DNA of 64,000 nucleotides, taken from assembly GCF_003334405.1 (NCBI RefSeq), contig NZ_QOWM01000007.1; one strand, written 5' to 3'. A program made the position numbers and the translations under genes. Shown piece by piece: positions 53,010-53,395 of the stretch; the stretch's first letter is position 1, and each line of letters begins with the position of its first letter. A model generated the notes under the pieces. That model ran no database searches, was not told the origin of the DNA, and saw only the letters and a program-made list of their open reading frames with translations. The DNA comes from Escherichia coli (GTDB lineage: Bacteria > Pseudomonadota > Gammaproteobacteria > Enterobacterales > Enterobacteriaceae).

Positions 53010-53229
53010 TACATAATCCTTCATTTATTTTAATTACAGTGATCCCTGTGAATATTACATCTGCTATACCGATTAATTCGCCAGATATATATGCAAGCAC
53101 CATCATTTACTAAAACAAGTAAATAAACGAGAGATGACCTTTGCAAAAGGCAAAATTAAGATATAGCAAACAAATAGATCACATTGAATCTAATCGGTTT
53201 GGCTCTGGTGATGGCTACAGAAGGGCAAA

Positions 53230-53304
53230 TCAAGGGCGGTGATCGACAATTTTGTTGTCAATATTGAACCATTTTGAGGTCACACATATATGTAAGATAT
53301 TCAT
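53230..53304 (-). CDS. tnaC: tna operon leader peptide (24 aa)
   Basis: minus strand reads ATGAATATCTTACATATATGTGTGACCTCAAAATGGTTCAATATTGACAACAAAATTGTCGATCACCGCCCTTGA = MNILHICVTSKWFNIDNKIVDHRP*; 220-nt spacer to tnaA. Confidence 0.95.
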   Translation of the reverse strand: MNILHICVTSKWFNIDNKIVDHRP

Positions 53305-53379
53305 AATGCACTTATCCTCGCAAGACACGAGGCTACATTATTACACTCAGAGTTTTTGTCTATTCTGAAATTGTTTAAA

Positions 53380-53395
53380 TGTGAATCGAATCACA
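53380..53395. promoter_or_regulatory. CRP binding site of tna promoter
   Basis: TGTGAATCGAATCACA, perfect TGTGA-N6-TCACA, about 75 nt upstream of tnaC. Confidence 0.85.

Follow-up and report, generated by a model that had tools for sequence, protein, structure and literature searches.

[quoted passage not shown] Initiation at this operon is under CAP/cAMP catabolite control (PMC3299997), and the tnaC promoter has served as an example of a Class I CRP promoter (PMC5957442). Ribosomes stall in a tryptophan-dependent manner at Pro24/UGA of tnaC, and the rut site lies immediately past the stop codon (PMC8429421, PMC10941005, PMC12360218), to which it is "immediately adjacent" (PMC10941005, PMC8429421). 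At low tryptophan, RF2 releases the peptide, rut is exposed and Rho terminates transcription before tnaA (PMC10941005, PMC8429421, PMC12360218). The role of RF2 at the tnaC UGA has been described, and the critical residues of TnaC are W12, D16, I19 and P24 (PMC8429421, PMC10941005). Pro24 and residue 23 block RF2 accommodation, and the stalled ribosome shields rut (PMC8429421). RNA polymerase pause sites in the spacer between tnaC and tnaA let tnaC translation catch up (PMC10941005). Ribosomal protein L4 binds this 220-nt spacer and lowers TnaA translation (PMC7186457). The small RNA Spot 42 pairs with a 15-nt tract of the tnaC-tnaA intergenic region (PMC5748587). Synthetic biology has also employed the leader as a tryptophan biosensor (PMC12360218).

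The window studied here is the whole 64-kb stretch of DNA that was analysed. Its region 53010..53395, together with the flanks, almost certainly represents the native promoter-leader region of the tryptophanase operon (tnaCAB) of E. coli, carried on the minus strand. A sequence-only reading had already seen a complete tryptophan-sensing nascent-peptide attenuation leader at this place. This view is borne out by identity to K-12, by NCBIfam matches and by the mechanism described in the literature. The elements were also placed correctly, except that the strand was omitted; all of them are on the minus strand, the only one on which the region makes sense when read. Over 52950..53560, a segment that runs from the end of mnmE into tnaA, the window agrees with E. 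coli K-12 at every base (611/611 bp, 100% identity). The leader thus carries zero substitutions and zero insertions in the alignment to K-12 that had been proposed as a check. Used as a query, this 611-bp segment is matched in 5420 of the 5426 complete E. coli genomes, on the chromosome every time. In the RefSeq annotation of K-12 the gene order is mnmE, tnaC ("tryptophanase leader peptide"), tnaA, tnaB and mdtL, with the same 220-nt tnaC-tnaA spacer. In the window, tnaC likewise lies upstream of tnaA and tnaB, all on one strand, in agreement with the K-12 annotation. The features are collected in Table 1.

Table 1. Features of the tna region, with positions in the window
Feature	Position	Strand	Description and basis
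tnaB	50256..51503	minus	low-affinity tryptophan permease, 415 aa; NF007235, 925 bits (cut-off 497); K-12 annotation
tnaA	51594..53009	minus	tryptophanase, 471 aa; NCBIfam TIGR02617, 1010 bits (cut-off 825.8)
tnaC-tnaA spacer	53010..53229	minus	exactly 220 nt, tnaC stop to tnaA ATG
tnaA Shine-Dalgarno	53017..53021	minus	AAGGA; read from sequence
C-rich, G-poor spacer start	53183..53229	minus	putative place of rut; composition, K-12 identity
Predicted Spot 42 pairing site	53191..53204	minus	AGCCAAACCGAUUA; pairs with Spot 42 nt 50-64, one bulged base
boxA-like element	53230..53238	minus	CGCCCTTGA; spans tnaC codons 23-24 and the stop codon
tnaC	53230..53304	minus	24 codons + UGA, MNILHICVTSKWFNIDNKIVDHRP; ATG at 53304, TGA 53232..53230
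tnaC Shine-Dalgarno	53315..53319	minus	GAGGA; 10 nt before ATG, read from sequence
Presumed transcription start (G)	53328	minus	319 nt upstream of tnaA ATG, 24 nt upstream of tnaC ATG
Likely extended -10 of tna promoter	53337..53345	minus	TGTAATAAT (TG-n-AATAAT); inferred from sequence
CRP-cAMP binding site	53377..53398 (22-mer); core 53380..53395	none	core TGTGAATCGAATCACA; motif match, conservation

tnaC holds a single Trp codon, Trp12 (UGG, 53271..53269). The codons of Asp16 (53259..53257), Ile19 (53250..53248) and Pro24 (CCU, 53235..53233) follow at the K-12 spacing (W-x3-D-x2-I-x4-P). Pro24 is directly followed by UGA, a codon read by RF2 (CCT TGA at 53235..53230). Translation therefore yields the peptide with Trp12 and the Pro24-stop that the sequence-only reading had described, and neither residue is substituted. 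Its list of critical residues was right for these two but incomplete, since Asp16 and Ile19 are critical as well. With the NCBIfam equivalog TIGR02616 the peptide reaches 44.3 bits (cut-off 23.55; E = 1.1e-11), over profile positions 1-22 of 22. It is identical to chain 7 of PDB 6i0y, "Tryptophanase operon leader peptide", and to the 20 modelled residues in PDB 4uy8.

Variation within the species was followed in an alignment of the window with five lineages spanning 95-97% identity (up to ~5% difference), two of which carry an island upstream of the operon. Only 4 of the 75 tnaC sites vary among the six, all of them synonymous third positions (F13, N17, K18 and H22), and all six encode the same TnaC protein, WP_001364348.1. 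Because only synonymous changes are found and the protein is everywhere the same, the alignment argues that the TnaC peptide sequence itself is under purifying selection. The element CGCCCTTGA at 53238..53230, at the end of tnaC, is presumably boxA, as reportedly described by Konan and Yanofsky in 2000.

The spacer upstream of tnaA has exactly the length of 220 nt given by the sequence-only reading (53229..53010). The rut region that the same reading saw in the spacer is a different matter. Identity to K-12, where rut was mapped, would place it at the spacer start, but it is not directly visible. In the best 78-nt window (53260..53183), C outnumbers G by 23 to 12, which is just the 96th percentile among the 78-nt windows of the whole stretch, so rut could not be read from composition. 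C/G ratios are 1.9-2.6 between transcript positions +71 and +140. No site resembling an intrinsic terminator was found on the minus strand of 53010..53229 by a terminator scan. The predicted fold of the spacer is not unusually stable (z = -1.09), with 26 of 200 shuffled sequences folding equally well or better. Both results fit factor-dependent termination. A search of 52500..54000 against Rfam at a permissive E-value matched zero curated RNA families.

Across the six lineages, spacer nt 1-80 contain a single variable site, as compared with 18 in the 110 nt at positions 81-190. The last 30 nt, which include the tnaA Shine-Dalgarno sequence, show no variable site (0/30). The conserved first 80 nt are the segment where rut is placed.

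The best predicted local duplex of the leader with spf of MG1655, of about -22 kcal/mol, is at 53204..53191. It was obtained with a windowed search; whole-length RNAduplex gave a meaningless end-to-end pairing. The position agrees with the tract described for Spot 42 (PMC5748587). This predicted site falls within the conserved C-rich segment adjoining the tnaC stop codon, so that the small RNA and Rho would compete for overlapping RNA.

In some natural isolates an IS1 element is located inside the tnaC-tnaA spacer. This is the case in E70 (L007:1015-1712), whose spacer of 997 nt can be read as 220 + 777, and in two further matches listed. As IS1 separates the rut region from tnaA there, tryptophan control of tnaA may be altered in these strains.

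Upstream of tnaC, TGTGAATCGAATCACA is the sole TGTGA-N6-TCACA in the 64-kb window when both strands are searched. Dinucleotide-preserving shuffles give an expectation of 0.06 per window, and 5 of 100 shuffles contain at least one match. The site had been called perfect. This is true of both core pentamers at 53380-53395, but not of the full 22-mer, in which, whichever strand is read, 15 of 22 positions agree with the consensus AAATGTGATCTAGATCACATTT. Among the six lineages, variation is confined to two of the 22 positions, which belong to the upstream flank. Neither the core nor the downstream flank varies, and the core stays unchanged even in strains whose upstream DNA is replaced by an island. 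A search of 53300..53560 for a TorR "tor box"-like CTGTTCATAT with at most 2 mismatches found none.

The tna promoter has no good -35 element, as expected for a CRP-dependent promoter. A sigma-70 consensus scan left it uncalled and returned a single chance site on the plus strand; missing a CRP-dependent promoter with a poor -35 is expected of such a scan. The -10 assignment in Table 1 is consequently a reading by eye. A 319-nt tna leader was reportedly described by Deeley and Yanofsky in 1982 and by Stewart and Yanofsky in 1985. Counting this length back from tnaA, we take 53328 to be +1. Class I CRP sites are centred near -61.5 (or -71.5, -82.5, -92.5) relative to the start. If the presumed +1, placed from this leader length, holds, the centre of the CRP site (53387.5) would lie at -59.5, to be compared with the canonical Class I position of -61.5.

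The presumed -10 (53337-53345, minus strand) is dimorphic. The K-12 type TGTAATAAT is present here and in strain 17a, and the other form is TATTATACT, found in 3 of the 5 other lineages sampled (4 of the 6 sequences of the alignment in all). Positions 53350-53354, near the presumed -10, are also variable among lineages. In about 790 of the 5420 matching E. coli genomes (~15%) the query is covered over less than 80% of its length. In three of the matches listed, the homology ends immediately upstream of the CRP site, at window position ~53396-53397. In both such strains examined (2/2), the DNA between mnmE and the tna promoter contains a gene for a type III effector of the ShET2/EspL2 family (L002:523-2692 and L006:535-2694). 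Strain ECOCN22 has an intact copy and strain 105 a frameshifted one. The junction of the effector island is located 1-2 bp upstream of the CRP core. There is a slim possibility that the -10 dimorphism and the upstream islands give lineages heritably different set-points of indole production. Further upstream, a 13-bp perfect inverted repeat, GAAGCCGCATTCTGACTGTCAGATGCGGCTTC, is found at 53505-53536, ~10 nt past the mnmE stop codon (53547). No T-run follows this repeat and the terminator scan left it uncalled. It may mark the end of the mnmE transcript, or form a stabilising hairpin that insulates the tna promoter.

The tnaA gene provides the differences from MG1655. Its protein is identical to that of MG1655 and its DNA differs at two synonymous positions: 52872 is G instead of T (Val46, GTG vs GTT in MG1655) and 52035 is T instead of C (Gly325, GGT vs GGC). 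A 1837-bp query covering tnaC-tnaA has a perfect match in 0 complete E. coli genomes, the best reaching 99.9%. The tnaA differences and the lack of a perfect 1837-bp match indicate that the source of the window is closely related to K-12 without being K-12 itself. Over 24 kb, the best matches have a listed identity of 100.0%, although their bit score suggests ~2 mismatches, by estimate. The annotated tnaA start is the ATG at 53009. Another in-frame ATG at 53024, five codons upstream (MKDYV-MENF...), overlaps the tnaA Shine-Dalgarno sequence and explains why the mechanical ORF list gives tnaA 476 aa and not the annotated 471 aa.

Three other explanations of the locus were weighed. A 24-codon ORF and a CRP-like motif could be chance features of an AT-rich intergenic region, devoid of regulatory role. 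Short ORFs (20-38 aa) are indeed numerous across the same 450 bp, on both strands, so that one of them is by itself no evidence, and the promoter scan left the tna promoter uncalled. However, the peptide scores above the cut-off of a curated equivalog model and has the sequence of a chain in a solved structure, only synonymous changes separate the lineages, a motif as rare as the CRP site is invariant among them, and the locus is identical to an experimentally characterised one in K-12. The probability left to a chance origin is negligible, and we consider it refuted by the K-12 identity, the synonymous-only variation, the TIGR02616 match and the identity to PDB 6i0y. It could also be proposed that the leader works as an attenuator of the trp type, in which a ribosome at Trp codons selects between alternative hairpins, including an intrinsic terminator, and Rho is not needed. 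A short Trp-containing leader peptide upstream of a tryptophan-related operon and a spacer that can be drawn as a long imperfect hairpin would agree with this. But tnaC has one Trp codon only, the sense strand of the spacer lacks a G+C-rich hairpin followed by a T-run, shuffled spacers fold as stably, and the logic is inverted since tryptophan induces the tna operon. Dependence on Rho and ribosome stalling at the stop codon are also documented in the literature (PMC8429421, PMC12360218). Hairpin attenuation is extremely improbable on these grounds, and the single Trp codon, the missing intrinsic terminator, the unexceptional fold and the inverted logic led us to reject it.

A subtler case is that all elements are present in a system made inactive or rewired by changes elsewhere, in rho, prfB, rplD/rplV or 23S rRNA, or by an altered tnaA. 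The window is not MG1655, given the two tnaA differences and the ~2 mismatches estimated from the bit score for the best 24-kb matches, and in some E. coli strains the spacer is interrupted by IS1 or the CRP site is preceded by an island. Against this, the leader here shows neither insertion nor substitution relative to K-12, and both tnaA differences are synonymous and leave TnaA identical. The trans-acting factors lie outside the window. We regard such a defect as very improbable. Because the two synonymous tnaA differences set the window apart from MG1655 itself, we infer the function of the leader in the source strain. The preferred reading, which no observation contradicts, is an intact tnaCAB leader. 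Its parts are intact, as observed in the identity to K-12, the family memberships and the conservation pattern. The constrained peptide, post-stop segment and CRP site together form, to judge from the alignment, the pattern predicted by the known mechanism. Ribosome stalling, Rho dependence and CRP dependence would be expected of this leader from its identity to the characterised K-12 sequence.

In such a leader, scarcity of glucose would lead CRP-cAMP, bound at 53380..53395, to activate initiation from a Class I promoter with a weak -35. The transcript would start ~24 nt before tnaC, and pausing of RNA polymerase in the 220-nt spacer would coincide with translation of the 24-codon tnaC. When tryptophan is low, RF2 would release TnaC at the UGA and the ribosome would depart. 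The C-rich rut just past the stop codon would then be exposed, and Rho would terminate transcription before tnaA. When tryptophan is high, the exit tunnel would hold one L-Trp, in a pocket to which Trp12, Asp16 and Ile19 contribute. TnaC-tRNAPro, with Pro24 in the P site, would resist hydrolysis by RF2. The ribosome stalled at Pro24/UGA would hide rut from Rho, and transcription would proceed into tnaAB. Spot 42 and ribosomal protein L4, acting on the spacer, may further repress tnaA.

The locus is real and correctly read, but its base-for-base identity to K-12 means that it is known. Judged by its sequence, the leader is one already fully described. An intact tna leader in E. coli adds nothing new, and its value is that of a positive control for reading a locus from the letters: among the most thoroughly studied of all nascent-peptide sensors, it was located at the right coordinates without any tools.

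The closest described system is the K-12 tnaCAB leader itself (tnaC b3707). The promoter, tnaC, spacer, peptide and CRP site are the same, as is the order mnmE-tnaC-tnaA-tnaB-mdtL. The leader shows no difference, and the region departs from MG1655 at the two synonymous tnaA positions, 52872 and 52035. With Class I CRP promoters of the lac type, the tna promoter shares a weak -35 and a single CRP site with perfect core pentamers, which would lie ~60 bp before the presumed start. It would differ in the centre of this site, at -59.5 by the presumed +1, not -61.5. The ornithine-sensing speF leader, speFL, follows the same logic, in which a ribosome arrested on a leader ORF in response to a small molecule prevents the loading of Rho (PMC12360218). 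It is unrelated in sequence and differs in peptide, ligand and operon; speFL is a mechanistic analogue only. Like the tna leader, trpL encodes a leader peptide through which tryptophan status governs transcription read-through. It senses charged tRNA-Trp via tandem Trp codons, uses alternative hairpins and an intrinsic terminator, and represses at high tryptophan. In contrast, the tna leader has one Trp codon and no intrinsic terminator, and free L-Trp is sensed in the exit tunnel. There, termination is by Rho, and high tryptophan induces the operon.
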